From an uncultured Gemmatimonadaceae bacterium (GTDB lineage: Bacteria; Gemmatimonadota; Gemmatimonadetes; Longimicrobiales; Gaopeijiaceae): 64,000 nucleotides of DNA. The DNA is taken from contig CAZOYA010000002.1 in assembly GCA_964583815.1 (NCBI GenBank), forward strand, positions 596 through 64,595. The letters are read 5' to 3'. Below are positions 8,519-59,043 of the stretch, piece after piece; the stretch's first letter is position 1, and the number at the start of each line of letters is the position of its first letter. A program made the translations under genes and the position numbers. The notes under the pieces were generated by a model. That model did no database searches. It was not told the DNA's origin and saw nothing but the letters and a program-made list of their open reading frames with translations.

Positions 8519-8573
8519 CGTAGAGATGGGCGGCCTTCCGACCGCCCTTCCGGACCTGCCCCGGAGCCGACCG

Positions 8574-36738: not shown

Positions 36739-36832
36739 GATTGCCGATCGCCCGAGACCGGAATATAGTTATCAACTTACCCTAGTGCCGAATAGCTTCG
36801 ACGCGCCATCTGGGCGGTCGCCGGGAGGGCTG

Positions 36833-37204
36833 ATGGATCCGCAGGATGAAACCGTTGCTTCTTTCCTTCCGCTCAAGCCCGCCGATTTCGAGATCCTGTT
36901 CGCCCTCGCCGATGGATGCCTGCACGGCTACGCGATCGCGAAGAGCATCGCCGCGCATACCCAGGGAATGGTTCGGATCGAGGCGGGCAATCTGCACCGG
37001 ACGCTGCGCAAGCTGGTGAGCCAGGGGCTGATCGCCGAGACGGAGGAACGGCCCCGCGGAGAACCCGAGGACGCACGTCGCCGCTACTGGGTGCAAACGC
37101 CGCTCGGACGTGCGGTGCTCTCTGCGGAGGCGGCGCGCATGCGGGAACGTGTGGCGAGGGCTGAAGCCAAGCGGCTGATCCCCCGGAGCGCGGAGGGTTC
37201 TTGA
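36833..37204 (+). CDS. PadR-family transcriptional regulator
   Basis: FEILFALADGCLHGYAIAKSI...NLHRTLRKLVSQGLI...RRRYWVQTPLGRAVL. GGGAGGG upstream. Confidence 0.9.
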   Translation: MDPQDETVASFLPLKPADFEILFALADGCLHGYAIAKSIAAHTQGMVRIEAGNLHRTLRKLVSQGLIAETEERPRGEPEDARRRYWVQTPLGRAVLSAEAARMRERVARAEAKRLIPRSAEGS

Positions 37205-39948
37205 GGAGACCTCTCCGGGATGGTCCGCCAGCGCACCGCCTCGTCGTCGGTCTGTACCGGACCATTCTTCGGCTCTACCCGCCGTCCTGGACGGAAGCAG
37301 ATCGGCGGGACATGGCGGCGTTCTTCACCGAGCGCTACCGCGAAGCATGGGCACGAGGGGGCGCGCGTGCCGCCGTGACGGCCGCCGCCCGCGCCTTCCT
37401 GGATGCGGCCGCGACCGGCGTGATGGAGTGGCTGCGAGCGAGTCAATCCACACGACGGATCGAACGGAGCCACGGAGGAGGTATGGGAGAGGTGGTGGGA
37501 GGGATGGTGCGCGACGTGCGTGTGGCAGGACGAAGCCTTCTTCGCAGTCCGGGATTCACCCTCGCGTGCGTGCTCACGCTGGCGCTGGGGGTGGGGCCGA
37601 ACACGGCGTTGTTCTCGGTGCTTCACAGCCTCGTCCTGGCGCCTCTCCCGTATCCGGAAGCGGAGCGCCTGGTCGTGATCCGGCGCGACCTGGTGACGCG
37701 CGGCATCTCCAACTATCCGGCGGCCCCCGCCGACCTCGTGGACTACCGCGAGAACAGCGACGCCTTCTCGGCCATCGCAGGCTACGTGAGCGCGGCCCCG
37801 ATCGTGACCGACGGGAGCGACACGGAGCGCCTCAGGGGCATCTCGGCTACCCCCGAGCTGTTCGAGGTTCTCGGCGTACGGCCGGCGCTCGGACGGGCCT
37901 TTTCGCCCGAAGAAGGAATCGCGGTCGCCCCTGGCGAGGGACAGCCCCAACGCCCGTTCCCGGTGATCATCTCCCACGGATACTGGATGCGCGCGTTCGG
38001 GGGCGATCCCGACGCGGTCGGAACCGTTTTGCCGTTCGCAAACGCCAACGGCACGATCGTAGGCGTGATGCCCGAAGGGTTCCGGCTCCTGCTGTCCCCC
38101 GACGACGGCGTGCCGGCCGAGCCCGACGTCATTCTCCCGTTCACCATCGACCCGCTCGATCCTTTTCGCGGCTCGTTCTTCCTGGGCACTCTGGGCCGCC
38201 TGGCACCCGGCGTCTCCCTGGATGTCGCCGAGGAGGAGATGAAGGCGGTCGGCGCGGTGCAGCAGGCCAAGTATCCCAGTGCGCGTGCCGCAGGCACGAC
38301 CATCCGGCTCGCACGGCTCGAGGATGACGTCAGCGCCGAGGTGCGTCCGCTTCTTCTGAGCCTTGCCGGCGCCGTGGCGTTCGTGCTCCTCATCGCCTGT
38401 GTGAACGTGGCCAACCTCCTCCTGGTGCGCTCCGCCGGCCGCGCCCGGGAGATCGCCGTCCGCACCGCTCTGGGCGGAGGACGCGCACGGATCGTTCGCC
38501 AGATCCTCTCCGAGGCCGTCGTGCTGGCGACGTTGGGTGGCGTCGCCGGCGTCGCGCTCGCCTGGATGGCCCTGCCGTTCCTGGAGAGGGCCCTTCCCCC
38601 GGAGCTCCCTCGCCTGGGTGTGCTCTCGTTGAACCTCCCGGTCCTGGCTTTCTCCGTCGCAACCATATCGCTCGCGGCCCTGCTCTTCGGAGCGCTCCCC
38701 GCCGTGCGCGGTGCACGGACCCACGTCATGGGAGCTCTGCGCGGGCGCACAGGATCCGGCGGTGCGAGCGTGAGCCTGCGATCAGGTCTCGTGGTCGTGG
38801 AAGTCGCGCTCTCGTTCCTGCTGGTACTCGGTGCCGGCCTCACGATCCGGAGCTTCCTGGCTCTGACGCATGTCGATCCCGGCTTCCAGGTCGAGGGTGT
38901 GCTTACGTTCCGGGCGACGTTGCCGGCTGCCAGCTATCCAGGTGCGGACGCCCTCGGGGCGGTGAACGAGCGGTTGCGCCAGGAGTTGCTCGCCACGCCG
39001 GGAATCGAGCGTGTCGGCGCCGCGAGCGAGCTCCCCTTCGACGGCGGCGCACGCGCCGCGCCCTACGGTGGAGAGGCCGAGCTCGCGGACGGTGATGAAA
39101 GCGATCTGCGGCAGGCCTACGTGCGGACCGCGGGGAACGGCTACTTCGAAGCGCTCGAGACACCGCTGGTCGCAGGACGCTTTCTCACGTCTGATGACGC
39201 GGGCACCGACAGGGTGCTGGTGGACGAAGTGCTGGCTCAGCGGACCTGGCCGGGAGAGATGGCCGTCGGAAAGCGCATCTTCGTGAAGGTGCAGGTGCCC
39301 GGCGAATGGTTCGAGGTCGTGGGTGTGGTCGGACACCAACGGCAGACGACGCTATCGGGACCTTCCCAGGAAACGATCTACTTCGCGCCTCTGGGCGGAA
39401 TCGGCGGAGTGCCCGGTCGTTGGGTTCTCCGGACCGCCGGCGATCCCCGGGCCCTGGTGGCTGGCGTGCGCGCTGCGGTCGCGCGCGTGGACGACCGGAT
39501 CCTCGTCGAGAATCTGGAGCCGCTTTCCGCCCTCGTGAGCGAAGCTCGGGCACCGACGCGCGTGGTCGCCGCGTTCGTCGCGACCTTCGGCGCGCTCGCG
39601 CTGGCGCTCGCCCTCGTGGGGCTTTACGGGGTGATCGCCTACCTGGTCCGCGAACGCCGCGGCGAGTTCGGTCTGCGCCTGGCGCTCGGTGCGAACAGAT
39701 CGAGCATCCTGCGCGTGGTCCTGGCCCGTGGGCTTCTGCTCTCGGGCACGGGAATCGGGCTCGGGCTGCTGGGGTCCCTGAGCCTCGGCACCTTGTTGGG
39801 GACCGTGCTCGTCGAGGTTCCTTCGCCCGACGGGAGTACGATTGGCGGGGTGATCGTTCTTTTCGTGCTCATGGCAGGCTGTGCTTCGTTGATCCCGGCT
39901 CGGCGTGCACTGCAAGTCGACCCGATGGTCACGCTGCGCCAGGAGTGA
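37201..39948 (+). CDS. duplicated orphan FtsX/MacB-type permease with N-terminal prefix domain (ADOP-like), paralogue 2
   Basis: The TTG start overlaps the PadR stop (TTGA). The prefix contains LYRTILRLYPPSW...DMAAFF. The core starts near MVRDVRVAGRSLLRSPGF. Two FtsX halves. Confidence 0.9.
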   Translation: MRRPLRDGPPAHRLVVGLYRTILRLYPPSWTEADRRDMAAFFTERYREAWARGGARAAVTAAARAFLDAAATGVMEWLRASQSTRRIERSHGGGMGEVVGGMVRDVRVAGRSLLRSPGFTLACVLTLALGVGPNTALFSVLHSLVLAPLPYPEAERLVVIRRDLVTRGISNYPAAPADLVDYRENSDAFSAIAGYVSAAPIVTDGSDTERLRGISATPELFEVLGVRPALGRAFSPEEGIAVAPGEGQPQRPFPVIISHGYWMRAFGGDPDAVGTVLPFANANGTIVGVMPEGFRLLLSPDDGVPAEPDVILPFTIDPLDPFRGSFFLGTLGRLAPGVSLDVAEEEMKAVGAVQQAKYPSARAAGTTIRLARLEDDVSAEVRPLLLSLAGAVAFVLLIACVNVANLLLVRSAGRAREIAVRTALGGGRARIVRQILSEAVVLATLGGVAGVALAWMALPFLERALPPELPRLGVLSLNLPVLAFSVATISLAALLFGALPAVRGARTHVMGALRGRTGSGGASVSLRSGLVVVEVALSFLLVLGAGLTIRSFLALTHVDPGFQVEGVLTFRATLPAASYPGADALGAVNERLRQELLATPGIERVGAASELPFDGGARAAPYGGEAELADGDESDLRQAYVRTAGNGYFEALETPLVAGRFLTSDDAGTDRVLVDEVLAQRTWPGEMAVGKRIFVKVQVPGEWFEVVGVVGHQRQTTLSGPSQETIYFAPLGGIGGVPGRWVLRTAGDPRALVAGVRAAVARVDDRILVENLEPLSALVSEARAPTRVVAAFVATFGALALALALVGLYGVIAYLVRERRGEFGLRLALGANRSSILRVVLARGLLLSGTGIGLGLLGSLSLGTLLGTVLVEVPSPDGSTIGGVIVLFVLMAGCASLIPARRALQVDPMVTLRQE

Positions 39949-42001: not shown

Positions 42002-44722
42002 CTACGATTCCCTGAGCGCCTCCGTCGGCTGGATCCGCAGGCCGCGCAGCGTGGGACGCGCCAGGGCGACCGCGCAGACGCATCCCGCGAGGATCGCGAC
42101 GAGAGTCAGCGTCAGCGGGATGTTGCCCATCTCGACACCGCGGTCGTTGCGCTCCATGTCAAGCAGCACCCACCCCCACGCCGCGCCCAGGACGAGCCCG
42201 ACTCCCACCTGGATCGCGGCGCGACGCCCCATCGCCGCGAAGATCGCGCGCGCGTCGGCCCCCAGGGCCGCGCGGATGCCGATCTCCCGCGTCCGTTGTG
42301 CGACGGTGAAGGACATCATCGCGTAGAGTCCCGTCGCGGAGAGGAGAACGACGGCGCACGCGAGCGCCAGCACGAGCAGGAAGATAGAGCGTAACAGGAG
42401 CGACTCGCTCCGGATCGTGTCCGCGACCAGACCCCCGTCGCTCACGATCGCCTCGGGGTCGAGCGAGGCGGCGATCCGTCGGAACCGTGGAACGAACGTC
42501 TCGGGGTCGCCCGCCACCTGCACGGTGTAGCGGACCGGGTCGACCTCCCCGGGTGCGAGCGGATGGTAGACCGCCGCGTCCCGCGCCGAGTTCTCGGGAT
42601 TCGTCCCGAACGAGCCGACCACGCCCACGATCTCGTACCACTCGTCCGCGTCGAGGGAGGCCGGGGATCCCCCCTGCGGCTCGTAACGGAGCCGCTGTCC
42701 GACCGCGTTCCGCCCGCCGAGGAAGTCGCGGACGAAGGACTCGTTCACGATCACCGCCGTGTGGCGGGTCCCGGGCGGTCCCTCGACATCGCCCGCGTTG
42801 AAGTCGCGCCCTGCGAGGATCGGGCGGCCGAGCCCCGCGAAGAACGACACGTCGACCTTGGGCACGGCCACGTCCCATTCGGGCATCTCGAATCCCGGAG
42901 GAGGCGTCTCGAGGAGAACGCTGCCGTTCGGAGGTGTGAGGCCCGGCACGTGGACGCCCATGCCGATGCCGCGAACGGCCGGGTCCTCGGAGAGCCGCGC
43001 GAGGAGGGTGCGCTGGATCTCCTCGAGGTGCCGCCGCCGGGCGAGCGAGTCGGATGCACCGGGCGCGCCCGCAGGACCGGGCTCCGGCATCGCGAGCGTG
43101 GCGTAGACGTACCCTTCCGGATCGAAGCCGAGGTCGCCCTGGTGGGCGAACGCGCTCCGCACCCACGTGACGCCCATCGCGAGAAACCCCACGGACAGGG
43201 CGATCTGGCTCACGATCAGCAGCGAAGCTCCCAAGCCGAAGCGCGCCGAGGCTGTCCGCGAGGCCGCGCGCTGGAGGTTCGCCTGGAGCGCGCGCCGGGT
43301 CAGCGGGAGCGCGGGCAGGACGCCGGCCACGATGGCGCACAGGGCGGCGAGGCCGAGCGCGATCGCCACGAGGCGGGGCGTGAGCCGGAGGTCCGCCCAC
43401 CAGGGGAGCAACCCGTACGGAGCCTGGAGGCGCATCACCCAGGAAGCGAACGCGTTGGCGCCGAGCAGACCCACGCCCGTGGCGGCCATCATGAGGACGA
43501 AGGCTTCGACGAACAACTGGGTGAGGATGCGCCCGCGACTGGCGCCGAGCGCGGTGCGGATCGTGATCTCGCCGGAGCGCGCGGCGGTGCGCGCGAGGAT
43601 CAGCATGCCGACATTGCCGCACACCACCATGAGGAGCCCGAAGATCAGCGTCTGGAGGATCACGATCTCCGTCTGGCCCCAGAATGCGCCGTCCTCGGCG
43701 TCCTCGTTGAGCAGCAGGACCGCCATCCCGACCACCTCGCCCAGGAGGTGCTCGAAGCGCTCCGGTTCGTCGGCCGCCCGCCGCTCGGTGAGCCGGGTCA
43801 TCTCGACGCGGGCGTCCTCGAGCGACACCCCGCCCGCGAGCCTTCCGAAGACGAAGACGAGGGGGCCGGTGCCGATCGGGAGATCCAACGCACGGGCCCG
43901 GAAGGGGAGCCAGACCTGCGTGTACGAGGGAAAGGCGAAGCCCGCCGGCATGACGCCGACGACCGTGTGATCGGTGCTCCCGATGCGGATGGACCGCCCG
44001 AGGATCGCCGGATCGCGGGCGAAGCGCGCGCTCCAGAGCTCTTCCCCGATGAGCGCCACGTCGGGCGCTCCCTCGCGCTCGTCCGCCGGGCCCAGCAGAC
44101 GTCCGACCAACGGCCGGGCGCCGAGGATGTCGAACGAGGAGGCGGTGAGACGCGCCGCCGGAACGGGCGATCCGCCGGTCTCGGCGACGTCGACGTTCAC
44201 CGAGTACGCCTGCGCGGCGCCGATCGACGCGAGCGAGGCCAGATCCTTCCAGCGCTCGAAGTCGTGCACGGTGGACAACCGGGCGTGCTGGAGGTCCACG
44301 TCGTAGTGGCGGACCCCGACCACGCGATCGGCTTCCGGGACGGGAAGATCGCTGAAGAGGACGTCGAGGACGTGCAGGAGGGTGAGCGACGCCGGAATGC
44401 CCAGGCCCAGCGTCAGCACCGCCACCACGGTGACCATGGGCTGCCTGGCGAGCATGCGGAGGCCCAGCTTCGCATCGAGCCCGATGCCGTTCGTGACGAG
44501 CCGGCGCAGGGCGGCGGTCCAGACCGCCCAGGCCGATGCCAGCGCGTTCCAGGCGTAGCGCCGGACGGCCGGGCCGCGTCCCCGCCCACGCTCGAGGTCG
44601 CGTGCGAAGGAGGCGTCCAGGTCCGACGCGATCCAGGATGCGTCGCGCCCGCGGATCAGCAGCCGGGCGAGCGCGCGCAGGAGACGGGGCGGGCGCGTGG
44701 GGTCCCGCGGGTCGTGGCCCAT
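42002..44722 (-). CDS. duplicated orphan FtsX/MacB-type permease with N-terminal prefix domain (ADOP-like), paralogue 3
   Basis: The ATG overlaps the PadR stop (TGATG); a TTG one codon upstream is also possible. Prefix RLLRALARLLIRGRDASW...DASF; core LGLRMLARQPMV...; two FtsX halves. Confidence 0.9.
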   Translation of the reverse strand: MGHDPRDPTRPPRLLRALARLLIRGRDASWIASDLDASFARDLERGRGRGPAVRRYAWNALASAWAVWTAALRRLVTNGIGLDAKLGLRMLARQPMVTVVAVLTLGLGIPASLTLLHVLDVLFSDLPVPEADRVVGVRHYDVDLQHARLSTVHDFERWKDLASLASIGAAQAYSVNVDVAETGGSPVPAARLTASSFDILGARPLVGRLLGPADEREGAPDVALIGEELWSARFARDPAILGRSIRIGSTDHTVVGVMPAGFAFPSYTQVWLPFRARALDLPIGTGPLVFVFGRLAGGVSLEDARVEMTRLTERRAADEPERFEHLLGEVVGMAVLLLNEDAEDGAFWGQTEIVILQTLIFGLLMVVCGNVGMLILARTAARSGEITIRTALGASRGRILTQLFVEAFVLMMAATGVGLLGANAFASWVMRLQAPYGLLPWWADLRLTPRLVAIALGLAALCAIVAGVLPALPLTRRALQANLQRAASRTASARFGLGASLLIVSQIALSVGFLAMGVTWVRSAFAHQGDLGFDPEGYVYATLAMPEPGPAGAPGASDSLARRRHLEEIQRTLLARLSEDPAVRGIGMGVHVPGLTPPNGSVLLETPPPGFEMPEWDVAVPKVDVSFFAGLGRPILAGRDFNAGDVEGPPGTRHTAVIVNESFVRDFLGGRNAVGQRLRYEPQGGSPASLDADEWYEIVGVVGSFGTNPENSARDAAVYHPLAPGEVDPVRYTVQVAGDPETFVPRFRRIAASLDPEAIVSDGGLVADTIRSESLLLRSIFLLVLALACAVVLLSATGLYAMMSFTVAQRTREIGIRAALGADARAIFAAMGRRAAIQVGVGLVLGAAWGWVLLDMERNDRGVEMGNIPLTLTLVAILAGCVCAVALARPTLRGLRIQPTEALRES

Positions 44723-45051
44723 CAACCCTCCGCGAGCCGGTCGAGCGCGGAGATCTGTCCGGTCGCCATCGACTGGAACGCGTCGTGCGCCTCGCGGAGC
44801 TCGCGCGCGCCTTCCGGGGAGAGTGCGTAGTACTTACGCGGCCTGCCCATGCGCCCCTGCGGCTTCTCGGTCCGTGAGCGCACGAGCCCCCGCTCCTCCA
44901 GCCGGGCGAGCGTCGTGTAGATCGCGCCGACGGAGACCGTGCGCCCGGTCCGCTCTTCGAGGTTCTCGCGGATCGAGACGCCGTAGGCGTCATCCCCGAG
45001 CTGGAGGACCGAGAAGAGGATGAGCTGCTCGAAGGCGCCGAGGTAGGGCAT
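44722..45051 (-). CDS. PadR-family transcriptional regulator
   Basis: FEQLILFSVLQLGDDAYGVSIRENLEE...IYTTLARLEERGLV...PRKYYALSPEGAREL. Confidence 0.9.
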   Translation of the reverse strand: MPYLGAFEQLILFSVLQLGDDAYGVSIRENLEERTGRTVSVGAIYTTLARLEERGLVRSRTEKPQGRMGRPRKYYALSPEGARELREAHDAFQSMATGQISALDRLAEG

Positions 45052-45154
45052 CGGGGGGCTCTGGTCGTCGGGCGGGGTGGGCCGTAATACTACACTGTGG
45101 TAAAAGTGGCTGCGAGCAGGGGACGTCCGCAAGAGCGACGCGCGCGGCCGGCGC

Positions 45155-50728: not shown

Positions 50729-52387
50729 CTATCCCCCGGTGCGCGCGAAGCGCATGTCGTAGACGCGCCCCAGGCTGAGCGAGAGCGCGTCCACGGCGCC
50801 CGAAGGCCCACGCCGGAAGCGCACGATGCTTCCGCCCATGCGGAACGCGTCCCGGTAGATCGGCTCGAGCGTGCGGGTGACGCCCGGGCGCTGCCAGACG
50901 ACGAGCGCCCCGTCCTCCACGGAGATCCGGTAGGTCGTTTCGGCGTCGGCGCTGTGGTAGGTGCCGGCGAACGCGGCCAGGTCTCCGGCCGCCGGCGTCC
51001 ACGGCTCGACCGGCTCCCAGCGCTGGTTCGTGTACTCCCACGATTCCTCGCGGAAGCCGACGCGTCCCTCGCCCTCGTCGAAGACGTAGCGGGCCGGCCC
51101 GATCCCCACCTGGAACTCGCGCCCGGAGAGGCGGAGCAGGGGGGTGGAGCCGTCCCGCAGCGTCCCGTCGAAGGTTAGCGTGCGCGTGGACCCCGTCACC
51201 GGATCGTGATAGAGACCCGCGAAGCGCGCATCCTGCGGGCGGGCCGCCTCCCCGTAGGCGGGCTCGGGCGGGACCGGCGCGGCGTCCCCGACGAACGCCT
51301 CCGCGATCCGGTACCCGGTGGGCCCGGTCGGCACGTCCGACGCGTTGCAGAGCATGGCGACCGAGAGCCCGTGGTCGGGATACCGGCCCAGGAAGGCGCG
51401 ATACCCGGCGGTCGAGCCGGTGTGCGTGATGGACGCCAGGAAGCCCACCGGCTCCTCGAGCCGGAGGCCTCCGGCATACACCGTCAGCGAGCCGTCGCTC
51501 AGCCGGCCGGTCTCGTGCATGAGCCGCACGAACTGCGGTCCGCCGAGCCGCCCGTCGTCGAGCGCCGCGTTCCAGATCCCCAGGTCACCCACCGTGGTGA
51601 GGATGCCGCCGTTCCCGTGCACGTCCTCGATCGGGCGGTCGATCTCCCACCCGTCGTCGTCCGTCGTGCGGTAGGCCGAGCTGCGCCCCGGGACGATGCG
51701 GCGGTAGTCGTCGCGCCACTGCGTGTTCCGGAGCCCCAGCGGCTCGAAGATCCGCTCGCGCGAGAACTCGGCGAAGGGTATCCCGCTCGCGCGGGTCACG
51801 ACGATCGCGAGCAGGTTGTATCCCGTGTTGCTGTAGGAGTACTCGTGCCCCGGCTCGAAGTTGAGCGCGCTCTGCCGCGAGACGATGTCGAGCACGTGCC
51901 GGTGGTCGTGCGTGCGCTCGCCCCGGCCCCAGCCGGAGATCCCCGCCACGCTGCCCCAGTCGCGCAACCCGCTCGTGTGCGTCATGAGGTGCTTCAGGGT
52001 GATCGTGTGCCCGTAGTCGGGCACCTCCGGGATCCAGCGCCGCACGTCGTCGTCGAGCGAGAGCACGCCGTCGAGCACGAGGAGCACGACGGCGGCGGCC
52101 GTGAACTGCTTCGAGAGCGAGCCTCCCTCGAAGGTCGTGGCGGGCGTGTTGGGGATGCCGTGCTCGAGGTCGGCCATCCCGTACGCGCGCTCGAGCACGG
52201 TGAGCCCGTTCCGGCGCACGCCGACGGCGCAGCCGGGCGAGGTGGTGGAGGTCCAGGGCGCGAAGATCTCGTCCACTCGGTGGGCGGCGTCCGGGGCGGC
52301 CACCTGCGCCGCGGCCCGACCCGGCGCCGCAAGGGTCGCGACGGCCACGGCGGCCGCGAGCGCGAGGCCCCTCGCCCGTCCCCTCAA
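50729..52387 (-). CDS. secreted serine hydrolase, class-C beta-lactamase fold with C-terminal extra domain
   Basis: The TTG start overlaps the upstream stop (TTGA), with GGAGGA 6 nt upstream. Signal peptide present. SxxK in GGSLSKQFTAAA, plus HLMTHTSGLRDW. Confidence 0.85.
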   Translation of the reverse strand: MRGRARGLALAAAVAVATLAAPGRAAAQVAAPDAAHRVDEIFAPWTSTTSPGCAVGVRRNGLTVLERAYGMADLEHGIPNTPATTFEGGSLSKQFTAAAVVLLVLDGVLSLDDDVRRWIPEVPDYGHTITLKHLMTHTSGLRDWGSVAGISGWGRGERTHDHRHVLDIVSRQSALNFEPGHEYSYSNTGYNLLAIVVTRASGIPFAEFSRERIFEPLGLRNTQWRDDYRRIVPGRSSAYRTTDDDGWEIDRPIEDVHGNGGILTTVGDLGIWNAALDDGRLGGPQFVRLMHETGRLSDGSLTVYAGGLRLEEPVGFLASITHTGSTAGYRAFLGRYPDHGLSVAMLCNASDVPTGPTGYRIAEAFVGDAAPVPPEPAYGEAARPQDARFAGLYHDPVTGSTRTLTFDGTLRDGSTPLLRLSGREFQVGIGPARYVFDEGEGRVGFREESWEYTNQRWEPVEPWTPAAGDLAAFAGTYHSADAETTYRISVEDGALVVWQRPGVTRTLEPIYRDAFRMGGSIVRFRRGPSGAVDALSLSLGRVYDMRFARTGG

Positions 52388-54162
52388 GGTGCGTCCTCCG
52401 ACACGCCCGGCCGTCCCCCGCGCCGGGACGGGATCACCCGTCCAGGCGTCGTGAGCAGGATCCGGCCGTTCTCGACCACGGCCTCGCCGTTCACGAGCAC
52501 GTGCTCGATCCCCTCCGCGTGCTGGTGCGGCTCGAAGAACGTGGCGCGGTCCGCGATCGTCTCGAGGTCGAAGACGACGAGGTCCGCCCAGTAGCCCTCG
52601 TGGATCTGGCCGCGGTCCTCGAGGCCCATGATCCGGGCCGGCAGGGAGGTCTGCGAGCGCACGGCGTCCTCGAGCGAGAGCGCTCCGACGGTGAGCGCGT
52701 AGTGCCGGATCTTGCGCGGGAAGGTCCCGTAGAAGCGCGGGTGCACGGAGCCGTCCTCGGGGAGCGCGATTCCCCCGTCGCTCGCCGTGGCCACCCACGG
52801 CTGGGCGGCGTAGCGCTCGACGTCCTCCTCCGACATGGAGAAGCCCCGCAGCCGGCCGCCGCCCCGCCGGTCCGGGTCGCCCTCGAGCTGCAGGTCGAGC
52901 GCCATCTGCACGGGATCCACACCCCGCTCGTCGGCGAGCTCCTGGAGGTTGCGGCCCACCCACTCCTCGCGGGGATACTCGAAGACGACCACCCGGTCGG
53001 CGCCGCCCCGGCGCCGGATCTCGTGGGCCACGTCCTGGCGGATACGCCGCGCGAGCTCGGGGTCGGCCAGATTCCGCCGCAGCATCTCCGCCGGCCCGGG
53101 CGCCGCTCCGCCGTCGCGCGCCCCCTCGGGCGGGGAGGTCGCCCACGACGGGATCAGGACGGTGCTCCCGTCGGATCCGCTCGTCGGATACGGATATTGA
53201 TCGGCCCAGACGCGCACGCCCTCGTCCCGCGCGCGCTGGATGAGCTGGATCGGCGCGCCGCTCGCGCCCCAGTAGTGCGCGCCCTTCGACTTGATGTGCG
53301 ACGCCACGACGCGCACGCCCGTGCGGCGGCCGATCTCGATCGTCTCCATGATCGCGTCGAAGAGCGTGGGCGGGCCGGCCGGGTCCTGGCTCGGCCAGTA
53401 CCACATCGGATCGCCGCCCTCGGAGCGCTGGTGCGAGATGTAGACGCCGTCCCAGGGGGCGAGCTCCTCGACCAGGCGGGCCACCTCGTCCGTCGTGCTG
53501 TAGCGGCCCGGGACGTACTCGAGCCCCGCGGACAGTCCCACCGCCCCCTCCTCGAGCCCCTGCCGCACGAGGGCCCGCATGCGCTCGACCTCCGCGTCCG
53601 TCGCCTCGCGCGCGAAGTCGTCCCCCATGACCTGCCGGCGCACCGTCCCGTGCCCGACCATGAGCATGACGTTCGGCCCCACGCCCTGCCGCTCGAGGAG
53701 CGCGCGCTGGTCGCGGATCGGCCACGGGGAGCGCCCGTCGTGGTTCACCACGACCGTCGTCACGCCCTGCGACACCACGTTCGGAGCGGCCTTCCGACGG
53801 GGGTCGTCGGTGCGGATCGTCTCCTCGCCGACCTCCGCGTTCCCGTCGTCCGCGTGCGAGTGGATGTCGATGAATCCGGGCGCGACGTAGCGTCCGGTGG
53901 CGTCGATCTCGCGCTCCGCCGTCGCCCCCTCGAGCAGGCCGACCTCCACGATGCGGCCGTCCCGCACCCCGATGTCCGCTCGGAACCACGGGTTGCCGGT
54001 GCCGTCGAGGACGCGCCCGCCACGCACGATCAGGTCGAAGGGGCCGGGATCGACGCCGGTGGCCTGGGCCGAGGCGGAGCCCGCGATGGAGGAGAGCGCG
54101 AGCGCCGCGCCGAGCGCGACGCCGAGGTGCCGGAGCCCCGTACGGGACGAGCTTCGAGCCAT
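52384..54162 (-). CDS. N-acyl-D-amino-acid deacylase (D-aminoacylase family amidohydrolase), secreted
   Basis: Signal peptide LALSSIAGSASAQ. FDLIVRGGRVLDGTGNPWFRADIGVRDGRI and GFIDIHSHAD metal motif. A GTG at 54174 is an alternative start. Confidence 0.9.
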   Translation of the reverse strand: MARSSSRTGLRHLGVALGAALALSSIAGSASAQATGVDPGPFDLIVRGGRVLDGTGNPWFRADIGVRDGRIVEVGLLEGATAEREIDATGRYVAPGFIDIHSHADDGNAEVGEETIRTDDPRRKAAPNVVSQGVTTVVVNHDGRSPWPIRDQRALLERQGVGPNVMLMVGHGTVRRQVMGDDFAREATDAEVERMRALVRQGLEEGAVGLSAGLEYVPGRYSTTDEVARLVEELAPWDGVYISHQRSEGGDPMWYWPSQDPAGPPTLFDAIMETIEIGRRTGVRVVASHIKSKGAHYWGASGAPIQLIQRARDEGVRVWADQYPYPTSGSDGSTVLIPSWATSPPEGARDGGAAPGPAEMLRRNLADPELARRIRQDVAHEIRRRGGADRVVVFEYPREEWVGRNLQELADERGVDPVQMALDLQLEGDPDRRGGGRLRGFSMSEEDVERYAAQPWVATASDGGIALPEDGSVHPRFYGTFPRKIRHYALTVGALSLEDAVRSQTSLPARIMGLEDRGQIHEGYWADLVVFDLETIADRATFFEPHQHAEGIEHVLVNGEAVVENGRILLTTPGRVIPSRRGGRPGVSEDAP

Positions 54163-54335
54163 GGATCGCTCCACGGATGGAGGGACGCGGTCGGCTTCGG
54201 GGCGGCCGGAGCGGCCGACCCCCGAACGTGGCGACGCCGGAGGCGATCGTACGGGGCGAAAGGGAAGCGCGGCAAGGCCGCGCCCCCCGCCCGATCACCC
54301 GCCGCTCCGCGCGCCGACCGCGGGGCCGACAGCGC

Positions 54336-56759
54336 TCAGTCGTGCCGGAGCGCCTCCGAAGGATCGACCAGGGAAGCCCGCGCCGCCGGAATCCAGCAGG
54401 CGGCCGCCGCGACCAGCGCGAACAGGACAGGCGCGCCGGCGAGCGTGGCCGGATCCTGCGGCTCGACCCCGTAGAGCATCCCCTCGAGCAGACGTGTGAG
54501 CATCCAGGCCGCCCCCGCGCCGGCCATCACGCCGGCCAGCACGGTGACCATCCCCTGTCGCACGACCATGCCGACCACGGTGCGCGCCTCGGCCCCGAGC
54601 GCCATCCGGATGCCGATCTCGGCGCGGCGCCGGCTCACGGCGTAGGACACGACCCCGTAGGTGCCCACCACGGCCAGGATCAGCGCGATGGACGCGAAGG
54701 CGCCGAGAAGGACCGTGGCGAACCGGTGGCGCGCCCGCGAGCCGGCCATGACCTCGTCCATCGTCCGGATCTCGGCGATCGGCATCGTGGGATCCACCTC
54801 GCGGACCACCGCGCGCACGGCGCCCAGGACCTGATAGGGATCGCCCCGCGTGGCGACGGTGAAGGTCATGCTGCGCGAGGTCTGCTGGGCGTGGGGGCGG
54901 TAGAACGCCTCCCGCACGGTCCCGGTCAGCTCGTTGTGCGCGACGTCGCCCACCACGCCCACGACCACCGTCGTGGCGCCGAGCACGCCGACCCGCGCGC
55001 CGAGGGGGCTGCGCTCCCCCCAGTAGTGACGAGCGAGCGATTCGCTGACGACGATGACCTCCTGCGCGCCCGCCACGTCGCCCTCCTCGATCGTGCGACC
55101 CGCGAGGAGCGGGATCCCCATCACCTCGAGATAGCCGGGCGTGACGAACTGCCACTCGGCGGCGTTGGACTCGTTGGGCGCGGGCTGGTAGCCCTCGACC
55201 CTCACGCCCGCGTCGCCCATCGTGCTGCCGAGCGGGAGGAGGCGCGCGGCGCCCGCGTCCACGACGCCCGGGAGCTCCTCGATTCGGCGCTCCACCTCGC
55301 GGTAGAACGCCACCACGTCCTCGTTCTCCGGATAGGTACCGGTCGGGGCCGTCGCCCGGAACGTCAGGACGTCCTCGGCGTGGAACCCGGGATCGACCCG
55401 GAGCAGGCCGACGAAGGTCCGGATCATGAGCACCGACGCGGTGAGGAGGACGACCGCCATGGCCATCTGGCCCGCCACGAGCAGGCCCTGGACGCGGCTC
55501 GAGGCCCCGCCGCCGACCGAGCGGCTCTCCCGCAGCGAAGCCGACGTCCCGTCGCGGAGCACGCGCAGCGCCGGCATCATGCCGAACAGGACGGCGGTGA
55601 GCAGTGAAGCCGCCATCGCGAAGATCAGCGCCGACGGATCCATCGAGACCGAGGAGGCACGGGGCACCGCGTCCGGATCGATCGCGAGGAGCGTGGGAAC
55701 CCCGACGGCCGCGATCGCGACCCCGAGCCCGCCCCCCAGTAGCGCGAGGACGACGCTCTCCGTGAGGAGTTGACGGAAGATCCGCCGCCGCCCCGCCCCG
55801 AGCGCCGTGCGCAGCGACATCTCGCGGACGCGCGCCTCGGCCCTGGAGAGCAGGAGGTTCGCCACGTTCCCGCAGGCGATGAGCAGCACGAGGAGCACGG
55901 CCCCCAGCAGGATCCAGATGGTGCCCTGCGCCGAGCCGACGATGTCCTCCTTCGCCCCGAAGACCCGGAACGCGAAGCCCTCCTCCGGGGCGTAGAGCCC
56001 CACGTGCTCGACGCTCTGGGCGAAGACGCGCGCCACGTCGGCGCGCGCGTCCTCGACGCTCCGTCCGTCCCGCAGGCGCCCGACCCCGTAGGAGCCGTGG
56101 TTGCCGCCCCCCGCCAGGTCCGGGGCGGCCGCTTCGAGATCCACGTATCCGGGTTGGAAGACCTCGGCCACGGACGACGAGCCGTAGTCGGCGGGCAGGA
56201 TGAACCCGGGGGGCATCACGCCGATCAGGGTCACGCTGCCGCCGTCGATCTCGACGGGGCGGCCGACCACGGTGGGATCTCCGTTCCAGCGCCGCTGCCA
56301 CGTCTCGTGGGCGACGAGCGCGACGGGTGCCTGCGTGCGCGCCTCGTCCCAGGTGAACGCGCGCCCCACGGCCGGCTCGACCCCGAGCACCTCGAAGACG
56401 TTGGGCGTCACGGTGGCGGCCCCGACCCGCTCCGGGCTCTCGACGGTCGTGAAGGTGGCCGAGCCGAGCTGGTAGAGCGCCATGTCCTCGAACGCCCGGC
56501 TCTCCTGGTGGAGGAGCTGGAACTCGGGCACCGAGAGCCACGTGCGGTCCGGAAAATCCGACCAGCGCGCCCAGATCGTGACGACCTCGTCCGACTCGCC
56601 GTAGGGCAGGGGCTCGAAGATCACGCCGTCGGCCACGCTGTAGATCGCCGTGGCGGCGCCCATCCCGAGCCCGAGCGTGAGCACCGCCACCACCGCGAAC
56701 GCCGGGCTCTTGCGGAGCGAGCGCAGCGCGAACCTGAGATCCTGGATCAACGTTCCCAT
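54336..56759 (-). CDS. duplicated orphan FtsX/MacB-type permease core (ADOP-like), paralogue 4; the ORF stays open upstream to 57092
   Basis: Core start MGTLIQDLRFALRSLRKSPAF is preceded by (GGA)7 acting as a very strong SD. Two FtsX halves. There is no stop codon between this ATG and the upstream toxin-like ORF. Confidence 0.85.
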   Translation of the reverse strand: MGTLIQDLRFALRSLRKSPAFAVVAVLTLGLGMGAATAIYSVADGVIFEPLPYGESDEVVTIWARWSDFPDRTWLSVPEFQLLHQESRAFEDMALYQLGSATFTTVESPERVGAATVTPNVFEVLGVEPAVGRAFTWDEARTQAPVALVAHETWQRRWNGDPTVVGRPVEIDGGSVTLIGVMPPGFILPADYGSSSVAEVFQPGYVDLEAAAPDLAGGGNHGSYGVGRLRDGRSVEDARADVARVFAQSVEHVGLYAPEEGFAFRVFGAKEDIVGSAQGTIWILLGAVLLVLLIACGNVANLLLSRAEARVREMSLRTALGAGRRRIFRQLLTESVVLALLGGGLGVAIAAVGVPTLLAIDPDAVPRASSVSMDPSALIFAMAASLLTAVLFGMMPALRVLRDGTSASLRESRSVGGGASSRVQGLLVAGQMAMAVVLLTASVLMIRTFVGLLRVDPGFHAEDVLTFRATAPTGTYPENEDVVAFYREVERRIEELPGVVDAGAARLLPLGSTMGDAGVRVEGYQPAPNESNAAEWQFVTPGYLEVMGIPLLAGRTIEEGDVAGAQEVIVVSESLARHYWGERSPLGARVGVLGATTVVVGVVGDVAHNELTGTVREAFYRPHAQQTSRSMTFTVATRGDPYQVLGAVRAVVREVDPTMPIAEIRTMDEVMAGSRARHRFATVLLGAFASIALILAVVGTYGVVSYAVSRRRAEIGIRMALGAEARTVVGMVVRQGMVTVLAGVMAGAGAAWMLTRLLEGMLYGVEPQDPATLAGAPVLFALVAAAACWIPAARASLVDPSEALRHD

Positions 56760-56780
56760 TCCTCCTCCTCCTCCTCCTCC
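56760..56780 (-). repeat. (GGA)7 trinucleotide repeat, i.e. (TCC)7 on the plus strand
   Basis: Read directly. It encodes Gly7 in the long ORF and abuts the permease ATG at 56759. Confidence 0.95.
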
Positions 56781-57092
56781 CGTCCATGAACGAGCCCGCC
56801 GGCGCGCGCCCCGCGCGAGCAGGGCCGGCATCGTCGTCTCCGCACCCCGCAGCGTGACCACGACGATGCGCTGGCTCCGGCGGTCCACGAGGCCGTCCAG
56901 CACGTGATCGCCCGCCTTCACCCGGAACGCGTGCTCCTCCGGGGGCGAAGGGCCACCGGGCGGCTCGCCGCCGGGCGGCCCCGCTTCCTCCAGCCGCCCG
57001 ATGCGCGCGGCCACGATCCGCTGCTCCTCCCGCGGGAGCGCTCGGAGGGCGGCCACGGCCGTGGGCGACAGCTCGATCCGCCAGCGCGTCAT
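56760..57092 (-). CDS. RelE/ParE-fold toxin-like ORF with no stop codon of its own (in frame with the downstream permease)
   Basis: MTRWRIELSPTAVAALRALPREEQRIVAARIGRLEE...HAFRVKAGDHVLDGLVDRRSQRIVVVTLRG follows the RelE/ParE secondary-structure pattern. It lies 16 nt downstream of a Phd/YefM gene. Confidence 0.6.
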
Positions 57093-57108
57093 GGGGCCGG
57101 CCGGCCTG

Positions 57109-57363
57109 CTACAGGTCCAGGTCCCGGCGGACCTCGTCCCACGGGACCGTGCCCGCCTCGGCGATCTCCCTCAGCGCGCCCTCGAAGTCCCGCTCCGCCA
57201 GGCGGGTGCGCATGCGCTCGAGCAGGGCCGCGTCCTCGAGCGGGACGAGGGCGGCCACGCCCTTGCCGTGGCGCGTCACCACGAACCGCTCGCCGCCGTA
57301 CGCGGCCCGGTTCACGAGCTCGGCCATGTTCCTGCGAATCTCGGCGGTCGTCACGCGCTTCAT
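57109..57363 (-). CDS. Phd/YefM-family antitoxin
   Basis: MKRVTTAEIRRNMAELVNRAAYGGERFVVTRHGKGVAALVPLEDAALLE. Confidence 0.85.
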   Translation of the reverse strand: MKRVTTAEIRRNMAELVNRAAYGGERFVVTRHGKGVAALVPLEDAALLERMRTRLAERDFEGALREIAEAGTVPWDEVRRDLDL

Positions 57364-57542
57364 GATGGGCCTCACGATCTCGATGTCCGGTCGGGCGCCG
57401 TCGGGGTGTTGGACGGCCGCCCGCGCCCGGTGGTTGGAACAGGATGTACAAAACGTGCAATCAGGTGGTCGGGAGGCGCTGCTTGCGGCCGGGACGCGCG
57501 CCGCCGACGATCAGGGGAGTACACCGCCTGCCAGGAGGCTCC

Positions 57543-58202
57543 ATGTCAGCCACGTCCCCGGCGCCCACGTCCGCGCCCACGGCCGAGCGCACCACCTACC
57601 GCATCGAGATGGATCACGTGGAGGCGTGCAACTGCCGGCACGGGTGCAATTGCCAGTTCGGCGGCTTCCCGAACGAGGGGAAGTGCGAGTTCATCATCGG
57701 CTATCACATCCGCAGGGGTGGGTACGGCAACGTGGACCTCGCGGGCACGAAGGTGGTCGTCGCGATGAAGTACCCGGGCGCCATCCACGAGGGGAACGGC
57801 CGGTGCGTGCTCTTCGTGGGCGAGGGAGCGAGCCCCGGGCAGGTGGAGGCGATCGACGAGATCTGGTCGGGGCGCGCGGGCGGGATGCCCTGGGAGGCGC
57901 TCGCCGGCACCCTCGCCTCCCGCGAGGGACCGCTCGTGCGGCCGATCGAGATGAAGATCGAGGGCACGCGGTCCTCGTTCGAGATCCCGGGGGTGCTCGA
58001 GCTCGAGCTCACGCCGCTGATCAACCCGGTCTCGGGCGAGGAGAAGGAGGTCCAGATCCGGTATCCGAAGGGAGGCTTCTTCTGGAACGAGGCCGACTGC
58101 TCGACGACCGCCCGCATGCGCGTGCAGCACGGGGAGCTGGACTTCAGCTACCCGGGAAACTACGCGTCCGCCGCCGTGGCGGAGTGGTCCAACGAGGCGT
58201 GA
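57543..58202 (+). CDS. DUF1326 domain protein
   Basis: Cys-rich N-terminus VEACNCRHGCNCQFGGFPNEGKCEF. AGGAGG upstream. Confidence 0.85.
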   Translation: MSATSPAPTSAPTAERTTYRIEMDHVEACNCRHGCNCQFGGFPNEGKCEFIIGYHIRRGGYGNVDLAGTKVVVAMKYPGAIHEGNGRCVLFVGEGASPGQVEAIDEIWSGRAGGMPWEALAGTLASREGPLVRPIEMKIEGTRSSFEIPGVLELELTPLINPVSGEEKEVQIRYPKGGFFWNEADCSTTARMRVQHGELDFSYPGNYASAAVAEWSNEA

Positions 58203-58203
58203 G

Positions 58204-59043
58204 ATGGGCGTGATCGCGGCGAGCGGCGCGCGGCGCGAGCAGCTCGTCGCGCTCGCGGGCACGATCGTCCTCGCGGCGCTCGCCTGGAGACACCTGATCG
58301 GGGTGGCCGCCGCCATGGGCGACATGGCCGCGCCCGCGGGGGCGGCCGGCGACATGCCCGACCTGAGCGGCATGGCCGGGATGGTGATGCCCGGGATGGG
58401 CGAGGCCCGCCCGGCGCCGGCCGGGTGGGGCCTGGCCGGCTCCCTCTTCGTCATGTGGGCGATCATGATGGTCGCGATGATGCTGCCCTCCGCGCTGCCG
58501 ACCATCCTGCTCTTCGCGCGGCTGCAGGAGGAGCGTGCGAAGCGCCCCGGTGCCCGGGTACCGGGGGTGCCGACGTCGCTCTTCGTGCTCGGCTACCTGA
58601 TCGTCTGGACGGCCTACAGCGCGCTCGCGGCGGCGGCCCAGTGGGGTCTGCAGCGCGCCCTCCTGGTCTCGCCGGCCATGACGAGCGCGAGCGTGGGCCT
58701 GAGCGGCGGTCTCCTGCTCGTGGCCGGAGCCTATCAGCTCACGCCGCTGAAGGAGCGCTGCGTGCGGCACTGCCGCTCGCCCCTCTCCTTCCTGACCCTG
58801 CACTGGCGGGAGGGAGCCCCGGGTGCGGTGCGGATGGGCCTCCACCACGGCGCGTACTGCGTCGGGTGCTGCTGGGCGCTCATGACCCTCCTGTTCGTGC
58901 TCGGGGTGATGAACCTCTTCTGGGTGCTCGCGCTCGCGGCGATCGTGCTCGCGGAGAAGGTGCTCCCCCGTCGGATCCGGGCGACGCCGGCGGTGGGGCT
59001 CGTGCTCATGGGCGCGGGGATCTGGATGATCGCCCGTTGGTGA
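58204..59043 (+). CDS. DUF2182 predicted metal-binding membrane protein
   Basis: Met-rich segment, WAIMMVAMMLPSALP, CVRHCRSP and HHGAYCVGCCWALM motifs. This is the usual partner of DUF1326. Confidence 0.85.
   Translation: MGVIAASGARREQLVALAGTIVLAALAWRHLIGVAAAMGDMAAPAGAAGDMPDLSGMAGMVMPGMGEARPAPAGWGLAGSLFVMWAIMMVAMMLPSALPTILLFARLQEERAKRPGARVPGVPTSLFVLGYLIVWTAYSALAAAAQWGLQRALLVSPAMTSASVGLSGGLLLVAGAYQLTPLKERCVRHCRSPLSFLTLHWREGAPGAVRMGLHHGAYCVGCCWALMTLLFVLGVMNLFWVLALAAIVLAEKVLPRRIRATPAVGLVLMGAGIWMIARW

Follow-up and report, generated by a model that had tools for sequence, protein, structure and literature searches.

On the minus strand of the window, by which we mean the whole 64-kb stretch of DNA analysed, a small gene of the Phd/YefM antitoxin family is followed after 16 nt by a single ORF of 918 codons (54336-57092) that joins a RelE-like domain, a linker and an ADOP permease. 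The ORF starts at the ATG at 57092, and its frame is free of stops down to 54336. The N-terminal domain (N-domain) with the RelE/ParE fold occupies aa 1-85 and the linker aa 86-111, and the ADOP core begins at M112 with the sequence 'MGTLIQDLRFALRSL'. All coordinates of the gene pair given in an earlier note on this DNA check out, as does its description of a toxin-like frame that lacks a stop and runs through an Arg/Gly linker (26 aa), including seven GGA codons, into an FtsX-type core. The features of the locus are:

57432-57460, minus strand: operator-like element TTGCACGTTTTGTACATCCTGTTCCAACC, lying 70-98 nt before the start codon of Phd
57109-57363, minus strand: Phd/YefM antitoxin/repressor gene, 84 aa plus stop (PF02604, E=3e-12; TIGR01552, E=1e-10)
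56838-57092, minus strand: RelE/ParE-fold domain, predicted to be cytoplasmic and catalytically degenerate (AF2, Foldseek, hhalign and residue comparison)
56760-56837, minus strand: linker, aa 86-111 (AETTMPALLARGARRRARSWTGGGGGGG), an Arg-rich part followed by a Gly run
56760-56780, minus strand: (GGA)x7, aa 105-111, Shine-Dalgarno-like, abutting the internal ATG on its 5' side
56757-56759, minus strand: internal ATG, M112 (the ADOP profile starts at aa 115)
54336-56756, minus strand: ADOP core, a duplicated FtsX/MacB-like permease (TIGR03434, PF12704, PF02687)

The core scores 874.4 bits against the ADOP profile TIGR03434 (cutoff 622.3), with aa 115-918 aligned to profile positions 1-803. PF12704 and PF02687 each match two stretches of it, in a layout of two MacB_PCD periplasmic domains and two FtsX transmembrane modules. 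The permease is an orphan: there is no ATPase domain on the protein or among its neighbours, which include an amidohydrolase-like gene on the downstream side and, on the other, genes for DUF1326 and PpoB2 proteins upstream. In MacB the ATPase is positioned directly ahead of TM1, and this is the place taken in the fusion by the N-domain and the Arg-rich linker. Nearly the whole linker has a pLDDT below 50 in the AF2 model (aa 86-88 and 90-111). Its R-rich...W...GG(G/E/W)M pattern is kept in the main clade of the fusion family, with the Trp present in most members of that clade.

Recurrence of the fusion and the junction start

At a GC content of 72.7%, a stop-free upstream extension of 111 codons is expected with a probability of ~17% from base composition by our calculation. 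Read-through is thus cheap, and the continuity of the ORF is by itself unremarkable; what lifts the fusion above chance is the same in-frame junction in ~20 divergent homologues. Among 1.84 billion representatives, RelE-like-ADOP fusions make up at least 14 clusters at 50% identity, including four full-length proteins of 918, 921, 888 and 936 aa, and a Gemmatimonadota MAG encodes a further fusion of 919 aa (a 920-codon stop-to-stop ORF). The named fusion records belong to Gemmatimonadota and Vicinamibacteria. Phd is located immediately upstream in the window and in every relative's locus read there (L002-L009, L011-L013). Toxin-FtsX fusions with Phd synteny, on whose recurrence in relatives the earlier note had staked its reading, are therefore found repeatedly, and judging from these sequences the arrangement recurs in many soil bacteria. 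The neighbourhood of L002-4 is TA-rich, with two HipBA-like modules, and L009 adjoins IS21/Mu-type transposase genes.

The fused ORF is real and not an indel artefact. The earlier note had pointed to a TGA in the +1 frame at 56747-56749, by which a 1-nt indel could mask an ordinary toxin stop overlapping the permease start. This TGA is present, and eight of nine loci have +1-frame stops near the junction. However, a separate assembly (L001, SRR11843831) is 99.9% identical over 6.9 kb (6 mismatches, 1 gap), and in spite of the six SNPs between them its 918-aa protein is unchanged; the strain variants P0037 and P0039 are also 918 aa long, with the same linker as the window. With ~20 divergent homologues from various projects and platforms fused in the same frame, an assembly or sequencing error is hardly credible as an explanation.

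Position 1 of the ADOP profile falls three residues past M112, whose ATG is the ancestral ADOP start and a possible second initiation site. GGA accounts for only 12% of Gly codons among the window genes. Wherever the junction of a main-clade locus could be read, its ATG has a GGAGG-like sequence ahead of it, and so do the junction ATGs of paralogues 1 and 2 of the window (listed below); the ATG at 57092 has no SD. In the main clade, the SD-like GGAGG and junction ATG may yield a core-only permease isoform in addition to the fusion. The distant clades L007, L008 and L009 have neither an internal ATG nor an SD at the junction, so that nothing but the fusion can be made there.

The same features could be taken for a neutral fusion, in which a decayed TA cassette came to lie ahead of an ADOP gene and its stop disappeared, translation of the permease starts for the most part at the internal SD and ATG, and the extension has no role. 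This account agrees with the strong SD-like (GGA)x7 abutting the internal ATG, with the lack of an SD at ATG 57092 and with the cheapness of read-through at 72.7% GC. Nevertheless, the in-frame junction is retained across lineages whose N-domain identity is just 32-51%, AF2 predicts the domain to fold confidently, the distant clades do without an internal start, and Phd synteny is invariant among the loci read. What neutral decay looks like is displayed by L002, the sole clearly decayed copy, with its duplications, frameshift and large deletion. We regard the neutral account as very unlikely.

The RelE/ParE-like domain and its Phd/YefM partner

Pfam and NCBIfam gave no family at E<=0.1 for the N-domain of the window protein and no relevant family at E<=10 for those of the three closest members. 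With curated HMMs missing the domain, its homology rests on profile-profile and fold evidence. Alignment by hhalign of the fusion-family profile A2 with eight PF05016-matching proteins gave 98.9% (E=3.2e-17, 79 columns), and a profile search with the fusion family reached the PF05016 protein P0033 at E=2.6e-8. The AF2 model has a strand-helix-helix-strand-strand-strand order (strand 5-8, helices 10-18 and 21-37, strands 53-60, 63-70 and 75-83), with a core pLDDT of ~86-94 except for a low-confidence loop near aa 41-50. All 50 matches listed by Foldseek against the PDB are RelE/ParE/YoeB/HigB/YafQ toxins or RelE-domain proteins (Cami1), the best being 1wmi_A (E=1.2e-5, TM 0.78), with 2khe at 3.7e-5; the latter RelE is also the top PDB match by sequence (E=0.044). 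These comparisons of sequences and models indicate that the N-domain is homologous to PF05016 toxins and has a predicted RelE/ParE fold, as the earlier note had proposed for the first 85 aa.

Seven residues are invariant in the standalone relatives (R53, R55, Y59, R60, R80, Y84 and R85, P0024 numbering), and all seven Arg/Tyr positions are replaced throughout the 21 fusion-family sequences. The nearest standalone relatives carry the motifs YRxRxGDYR and GHRxxxYR, and the active site that these mark is missing from the fusion family. In E. coli RelE, the basic and aromatic active-site residues are K52/K54/R61/R81/Y87. Of the basic residues of the RelE beta-sheet motif, the window protein retains just R57 and K59, so that some residual interaction with RNA or the ribosome is possible. 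Where the standalone proteins have the C-terminal ...GHRKDVYR segment, the fusions have the variable linker. The absence of catalytic residues, suspected earlier in the window protein, thus extends to the whole family, and comparison of the residues predicts that the N-domain is catalytically dead.

The start of Phd at 57363 agrees with that of its orthologues. Among solved structures, Phd is closest to M. tuberculosis RelB1 (9g12_C, E=5e-5, aligned aa 4-80), and the N-domain matches 9g12_B by fold; together they match both chains of the M. tuberculosis RelBE1 complex. Phd is the most conserved component of the locus, with a mean identity of 59% (N-domain 41%, core 43%). Its conserved stretches include the C-terminal segment ...GTVPWDEVRRDL, and the N-terminal DNA-binding half is highly conserved as well.

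The operator-like element upstream of Phd contains a TGTACA (57445-57450) that is the sole copy in the 64-kb window. A TTGCAC-N3-TTGTACA...TTCCAACC element is common to the window and loci L010, L011, L012 and L013; L011 has a perfect palindrome of 22 bp, and L002 and L007 have paired TGTACA motifs. TGTACA palindromes precede the Phd gene in 10 of 11 loci; that of the window itself is degenerate in its right half. The E. coli YefM operator has TGTACA as its core, and YefM represses via TGTACA palindromes with YoeB as co-repressor (PMC1802561). By its sequence, 57432-57460 is a candidate YefM-type operator for Phd. A consensus scan found neither a sigma-70-type promoter nor an intrinsic terminator.

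Phd might instead act after translation, its binding to the tethered domain gating or inhibiting transport or mechanotransmission by a permease that does not itself control transcription. The location of the N-domain at the MacB ATPase position, just ahead of TM1, would suit such a role. In E. coli RelBE, the C-terminal helix of the toxin is displaced on antitoxin binding; the segment so displaced corresponds to the permease linker here, and 2kc8 is among the fold matches of the N-domain. By contrast, the conserved DNA-binding half of Phd and the upstream TGTACA palindromes argue that DNA binding by Phd matters. We consider an exclusively post-translational role unlikely; post-translational and transcriptional roles are not mutually exclusive.

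PadR-coupled paralogues and the proposed mechanism

The window holds three other ADOP paralogues, each of them, as described before, with an N-terminal prefix (83-102 aa) and an upstream PadR gene in stop/start overlap:

8472-11587, plus strand: paralogue 1, PadR 8472-8903, prefix-ADOP 8900-11587, junction ATG 9194
36725-39948, plus strand: paralogue 2, PadR 36725-37204, prefix-ADOP 37201-39948, junction ATG 37483
42002-45054, minus strand: paralogue 3, PadR 44722-45054, prefix-ADOP 42002-44725

PadR genes accompany these three paralogues only, and the fusion has Phd/YefM upstream instead. The idea that PadR and prefix work as a regulator and its tethered domain, raised in the earlier note, is not new: it has been published as the HAAS-PadR dyad hypothesis, in which the two are proposed as a signalling pair and HAAS domains fused to FtsX/MacB-PCD permeases are included (Ravi et al. 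2024, PMC11237479). HAAS domains are DUF1700/DUF1129/DUF1048-like. The paralogue prefixes have no Pfam match, paralogue 3 gives one weak match to perm_prefix_2 (E=0.035), and the prefix AF2 model is all-helical with low confidence (pLDDT 60, pTM 0.31). Going by their architecture and the published description (PMC11237479), the three paralogues apparently carry the HAAS-PadR dyad. The fusion module was considered as a further member of the dyad and rejected, as its N-domain is an alpha/beta RelE domain and not a three-helix HAAS, and its upstream gene is Phd and not PadR.

A working TA system for addiction, stress or defence, in which Phd neutralises an active toxin (tethered or proteolytically released) or a toxic permease, would share the antitoxin-first order, tight coupling and candidate YefM-type operator of the locus, all of them canonical TA features. 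The two HipBA-like modules adjoining L002-4, the transposase genes beside L009 and the retention of R57 and K59 in the window protein also speak for it. We nonetheless find it unlikely: the seven Arg/Tyr positions are lost family-wide, the C-terminal ...GHRKDVYR segment is now a variable linker, and conservation of the domain falls short of that of its antitoxin. PADLOC returned no matches to Phd or the N-domain and a weak one to the full-length protein (E=1.6e-4), in the permease region. The scaffold, moreover, is an ordinary ADOP permease whose paralogues hold a regulator-coupled prefix at the same position.

The reading we favour, with a probability of about 0.55, is that the two genes are a conserved module derived from a RelBE/YefM-YoeB-type TA pair and domesticated into a permease-tethered partner and a repressor. 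The toxin gene would have lost its stop and catalytic Arg/Tyr residues and come to form the cytoplasmic N-terminus of an orphan ADOP permease, and the Phd/YefM gene would have remained immediately upstream, translationally coupled. Phd would be a dimeric autorepressor acting on the TGTACA palindromes of its own promoter, and the tethered pseudo-toxin, retaining its antitoxin-binding surface, would either capture Phd at the membrane or serve as co-repressor. A conformational change of the periplasmic MacB_PCD domains would pass through TM1 and the linker to alter the Phd/pseudo-toxin interaction, and the status of the envelope or substrate would in this way determine transcription from the operon's promoter and perhaps from others that contain TGTACA. 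We infer the binding of Phd to the tethered domain, the signalling via TM1 and the linker, and the direction of regulation. By analogy, the module would be a functional counterpart of the HAAS-PadR dyad built from another protein pair.

More tentatively, at slightly less than even odds in our estimate, the TA pair may have become a transmembrane device, in which a dead RelE fold on an ATPase-less MacB-type permease reversibly captures a YefM-like repressor or co-represses with it, and so converts periplasmic events into transcription without a kinase. Such a device would perform the task suggested for HAAS-PadR by a second route of independent evolutionary origin, and the junction SD and ATG might make the proportion of tethered to untethered permease adjustable.

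Significance and comparison with known systems

If the favoured reading is true, a TA toxin fold that has lost catalysis serves a membrane protein solely as a module for signalling by protein-protein contact, which bears on the long-running question of the purpose and exaptation of chromosomal TA modules. The module would lend independent support to the HAAS-PadR hypothesis, with regulator/partner-domain pairs of two unrelated kinds at the same position of one permease scaffold. It would also offer a handle on the large expansions of ADOP permeases in Acidobacteriota and Gemmatimonadota, whose function is obscure, since YefM-YoeB biochemistry, from the operator and co-repression to structures of the complex, is well understood and can be carried over directly. 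Current annotation does not reveal the architecture, as the N-domain has no Pfam/NCBIfam match, and sources name the proteins 'predicted permease' or nothing.

FtsX-family proteins of the MacB/BceAB type (type VII ABC) share with the fusion the FtsX transmembrane fold, large periplasmic domains and a cytoplasmic module before TM1. Signalling from BceAB to BceS is a precedent for FtsX-type permeases as sensors that report to a regulator. The fusion differs from this type in that it has no fused or adjacent ATPase, its cytoplasmic module is a pseudo-toxin, and its proposed output is a one-protein repressor and not a kinase.

With the YefM-YoeB/RelBE TA systems (M. tuberculosis RelBE1, PDB 9G12; E. 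coli YefM-YoeB), the locus has in common the antitoxin-first order with tight coupling, the folds of both partners, the TGTACA palindromic operator (a candidate here) and a toxin that would be the partner or co-repressor of the antitoxin. Unlike in these systems, the toxin has no stop and makes up the N-terminal part of a permease of 918 aa, it lacks the conserved catalytic or basic residues as well as the C-terminal segment, and sequence conservation is higher in the antitoxin than in the toxin. Cami1 (CARF-RelE, PDB 8PHB/8PHJ) likewise joins a RelE fold to a sensor module and reuses a TA toxin fold in a signalling protein, but is soluble, with neither an antitoxin partner nor a membrane scaffold, and cA4 switches on its RelE domain, a working RNase that depends on the ribosome.

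The HAAS-PadR dyad, with three apparent cases within the window, has the same ADOP/FtsX-MacB_PCD scaffold. There too, a small standalone DNA-binding protein is encoded just upstream of a membrane protein whose N-terminal domain, in the cytoplasm, presumably pairs with the regulator, in a proposed one-step alternative to two-component signalling. The regulator is a PadR winged helix in the dyad and Phd/YefM in the fusion module, and the tethered domain is a three-helix HAAS in the one and a predicted RelE/ParE alpha/beta fold in the other. The pair in the fusion module, by contrast with the dyad, appears to be derived from a TA system and to have kept its YefM-type TGTACA operator.

The fused reading frame and its recurrence

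The earlier note described a RelE/ParE-like toxin frame that runs without a stop into an FtsX-type permease behind a Phd/YefM antitoxin gene, and all coordinates of the fusion ORF, the Phd gene and their junction were reproduced:

57109-57363, minus strand: Phd/YefM gene, 84 aa (PF02604, E=3e-12; TIGR01552, E=1e-10)
ATG 57092 to 54336, minus strand: fusion ORF, 918 codons, stop-free, starting after a 16-nt gap from Phd
56760-56780, minus strand: (GGA)x7 run, seven Gly codons in a row (aa 105-111)
56757-56759, minus strand: internal ATG (M112, MGTLIQDLRFALRSL), directly after the GGA run

Residues 115-918 of the encoded protein match positions 1-803 of TIGR03434, the profile of the ATPase-less duplicated permeases (ADOP), with 874 bits (cutoff 622). 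The +1-frame TGA at 56747-56749, which had been pointed out as the possible end of a toxin gene separated by a hidden indel, is present in the sequence. An assembly artefact is nevertheless excluded. Locus L001, from another run (SRR11843831), encodes the exact 918-aa protein; over 6.9 kb, 6 mismatches and one gap set it apart from the window, and it therefore represents a close strain that was assembled independently. Two more 918-aa variants in the 90% cluster carry the same fused ORF; their linker is unchanged, and their permease part differs at one or two residues. At the 72.7% GC of the window ORF continuity alone means little (base composition gives an estimated chance of about 17% for 111 stop-free upstream codons), so the significance of the fusion rests on its relatives.

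Among 1.84 billion cluster representatives, searched exhaustively with HMMER, 31 proteins scored E<=1e-3, and in at least 14 of them the RelE-like domain continues in frame into an ADOP core; the weak end of the list consists of ordinary RelE/ParE toxins of 83-90 aa. Four fusions are full-length (P0009, 918 aa; P0015, 921; P0021, 888; P0031, 936), and the other fusion clusters are cut by contig ends. Source databases name the fusion proteins 'predicted permease' or leave them without a name. A PF02604 gene lies directly upstream in all readable relatives' loci (L002-4, L005, L006, L007, L008, L009, L011, L012, L013); the fusion and its Phd synteny, whose absence in relatives would have spoken against the earlier note, thus do recur. 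We also scanned GTDB species representatives and found the fusion in three Gemmatimonadota MAGs, a lower bound, since the contig scan was tied to one peptide pattern (ALRALPRxEQ) and used 5 close sequences, the 19-sequence family alignment being too divergent for it. One of these MAGs (L011) contains a 920-codon stop-to-stop ORF with a 919-aa fusion, and one fusion fragment is annotated as Vicinamibacteria, a class within Acidobacteriota.

Although rare, the fusion family is old. Its clades share with one another 32-51% identity in the N-domain, 32-59% in the core and 50-71% in Phd, which is the most conserved component in every pair compared, reversing the usual toxin-antitoxin (TA) pattern. 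The linkage of the fusion to this highly conserved Phd/YefM gene is invariant. Genes downstream of the fusion are different in every relative's locus, and the conserved module therefore comprises Phd and the fusion only. In the window, an amidohydrolase-like ORF of 596 aa with a signal peptide lies about 160 nt downstream of the fusion (52384-54174, minus strand).

The RelE-like domain and the junction

The N-terminal 111 aa gave no matches in Pfam, NCBIfam or PADLOC, and homology was therefore drawn from profile and fold methods. An AF2 model built from three sequences displays a confident strand-helix-helix-strand-strand-strand core over aa 1-85, followed by a disordered linker (aa 86-111). 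All 50 PDB matches listed by Foldseek for the N-domain are RelE/ParE-superfamily toxins or RelE-domain proteins: archaeal RelE 1wmi_A ranks first (E=1.2e-5, TM 0.78), Thermus thermophilus RelE 2khe, Escherichia coli RelE 4fxe and Mycobacterium tuberculosis RelE1/2 are among the others, and YoeB, ParE, HigB and Cami1 appear further down. The 19-member family profile aligns by hhalign with eight standalone proteins, every one of which matches PF05016, at 98.9% probability (E=3e-17). Searched against 5.8 billion sequences, the profile recovers a PF05016 protein (E=2.6e-8). The N-domain is thus homologous to RelE/ParE, though divergent, and on the agreement of the AF2 core, Foldseek and hhalign the first 85 aa are RelE/ParE-like, as previously proposed.

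Seven Arg/Tyr positions that are invariant in the standalone relatives (YRxRxGDYR and GHRxxVYR motifs) are all replaced throughout a set of 21 fusion-family sequences; the RelE C-terminal motif is supplanted by the variable linker, and the window N-domain keeps only R57 and K59. The loss of the usual catalytic residues, suspected from the window copy, thus holds family-wide, and the domain is predicted to be disarmed. The same loss disfavours an active toxin, whether tethered or released. The invariant residues of the domain are mostly found in the helical hairpin and hydrophobic core.

In the main clade (the window, L002, L005, L006, L011, L012 and L013) the linker terminates in GG(G/E/W)M, with a GGAGG-like sequence 0-10 nt ahead of the ATG; GGA accounts for just 12% of the Gly codons that window genes use. 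This SD and ATG look like an ancestral ADOP ribosome-binding site retained within the fusion, and may still yield a core-only isoform. No SD was found at ATG 57092, which is probably translationally coupled to Phd. The junctions of the distant clades L007, L008 and L009 have neither ATG nor SD, leaving the fusion as the sole possible product there. These clades, and the conservation of the RelE-like fold, contradict a neutral read-through in which the internal start would supply the permease. The fusion is instead conserved and obligate, and places a catalytically degenerate RelE-fold domain on the cytoplasmic N-terminus of the permease.

Release of a free RelE-like protein by programmed +1 frameshifting on the SD-like run was considered but not adopted. 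A +1-frame stop occurs -17 to +22 nt from the junction ATG in 8/9 loci (window, L005-L013) against a per-locus background of 25-47%, but this range is a post hoc choice and the position of the stop is not conserved among the loci.

Some copies of the fusion gene are interrupted. The L002-4 lineage is genuinely decayed: nested tandem duplications in the linker (L002 3849-3920, also in L003 and L004), of a 27-nt unit followed by 23-nt and 15-nt partial copies, shift the frame, and deleting the 23-nt and 15-nt copies restores ...RRWMKSLVKGGRMETLAQDLRF. The permease of this lineage has an internal deletion of about 450 aa and more frameshifts, and the locus adjoins two HipA/HTH (HipBA-like) modules. 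L013 has an in-frame TAG where the conserved linker Trp is expected (5303-5308) and L012 an in-frame TGA at a Trp position of the core (4776-4781), the rest of the fusion gene being intact in both. Both stops are G>A changes of TGG that coincide with GATC and CCTGG motifs, and the contig names of both MAGs point to long-read assemblies. Base-calling errors linked to methylation are the probable cause, and the stops are therefore not counted as evidence for separate genes; L013 was accordingly rejected as a natural split gene. Gene callers split or truncate the fusion gene at these stops.

Phd and its upstream region

Residues 4-80 of the window Phd align with M. tuberculosis RelB1 (9g12_C, E=5e-5), whose toxin partner in the same complex, 9g12_B, ranks with the best fold matches of the N-domain. 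Conservation among Phd orthologues covers the N-terminal half (...AAYGGERFVVTRHGK...) as well as the C-terminal tail (...GTVPWDEVRRDLDL), and the C-terminal segment reads ...EAGTVPWDEVRRDLDL.

TGTACA occurs just once in the entire 64-kb window, at 87 nt upstream of the Phd ATG. TGTACA is present upstream of Phd in 10/11 loci, paired in L002 and L007 and inside a perfect 22-bp palindrome in L011. A common element, TTGCAC-N3-TTGTACA-(5-16 nt)-TTCCAACC, precedes Phd in Gemmatimonadota loci (window 57432-57460 and L010-L013). The window copy is without about 10 nt and the right palindrome half found in L011 (GCACGTTTTGTACAAAACGTGC); other loci have an AT-rich stretch (TACAAATTG-like) ahead of TTCCAACC, which we take to resemble Bacteroidota-type -7 promoter boxes. 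A consensus scan of 54100-57700 for sigma-70 promoters and terminators found nothing. The palindromes upstream of Phd are of the YefM type: TGTACA palindromes form the core of the E. coli YefM-YoeB operator, where YefM represses and YoeB enhances repression (PMC1802561).

Two further genes share the TGTACA-bearing intergenic region with Phd, a DUF1326 gene diverging from the Phd promoter region (57444-58202, plus strand) and, beyond it, a PpoB2/PF09948 membrane protein gene (58204-59043, plus strand), both identified by Pfam matches on L001.

PadR-coupled paralogues and the proposed mechanism

The window holds three further ADOP paralogues with an N-terminal prefix (83-102 aa) and an overlapping upstream PadR gene, in agreement with the earlier note:

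8472-8903 / 8900-11587, plus strand: PadR / prefix-ADOP, paralogue 1, PadR stop overlapping permease start
36725-37204 / 37201-39948, plus strand: PadR / prefix-ADOP, paralogue 2, PadR stop overlapping permease start
44722-45054 / 42002-44725, minus strand: PadR / prefix-ADOP, paralogue 3, PadR stop overlapping permease start

A GGAGG SD-like run stands right before the in-frame prefix/core ATG of paralogues 1 and 2 (9194 and 37483; GAGAGGAGGGGAGGGGATG at 9175-9196 and CACGGAGGAGGTATG at 37470-37485), and prefix-ADOP genes may in general give rise, by internal initiation, to a permease isoform that lacks the prefix. Judged by its translation alone, a long ORF at 11274-13874 (plus strand) resembles a GspE/PilB-type secretion ATPase carrying a response-regulator receiver domain at its C-terminus. 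In L007 (5614-7013) and L013 (3192-4516), PadR genes with membrane-protein or MacB_PCD genes behind them also lie within a few kb of the Phd-fusion module; the two kinds of dyad are thus neighbours in several genomes, as in the window. In an NJ tree of cores the PadR-type paralogues fall between two fusion clades, at identities (32-39%) too low to tell one from several fusion events.

The three paralogues fit the architecture of the HAAS-PadR dyad defined by Ravi et al. 2024 (PMC11237479). HAAS is a helical domain that multi-TM proteins carry N-terminally, with a standalone PadR gene always adjacent; it has been proposed to bind and release the PadR regulator upon membrane signals (PMC11237479). 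HMM scans of the paralogue prefixes for HAAS were negative or weak, and their AF2 pLDDT of 60 was too poor for a fold search. Because the dyad proposal already contains it, the idea of a tethered domain sequestering its regulator is not new for PadR and prefix; the novelty is its Phd/RelE-like version, of which no description was found in the literature searched (RelE-FtsX fusions, FtsX/PadR permeases, duplicated orphan permeases).

The anatomy of the module as a whole we regard as nearly certain, and its operation as a permease-tethered pseudo-toxin with a Phd repressor as about an even chance (roughly 0.5). Phd would autorepress the operon via the upstream TGTACA palindromes, and the tethered pseudo-toxin would retain antitoxin binding. 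Conformational changes of the periplasmic MacB_PCD would pass through TM1 and the Arg-rich linker and alter Phd capture or co-repression; the signal could either release or capture Phd. In E. coli RelBE, antitoxin binding displaces the RelE C-terminal helix, and the Arg-rich linker would take the place of this helix. Phd might also gate the permease post-translationally, a reading that is consistent with the anatomy and compatible with the pseudo-toxin mechanism rather than exclusive of it.

The domain architecture is real and previously unannotated, and the module merits experimental follow-up because every step of the mechanism is testable by standard TA biochemistry. It combines type II TA modules with the regulator/partner-domain dyads on FtsX-type permeases, each a known kind of system.
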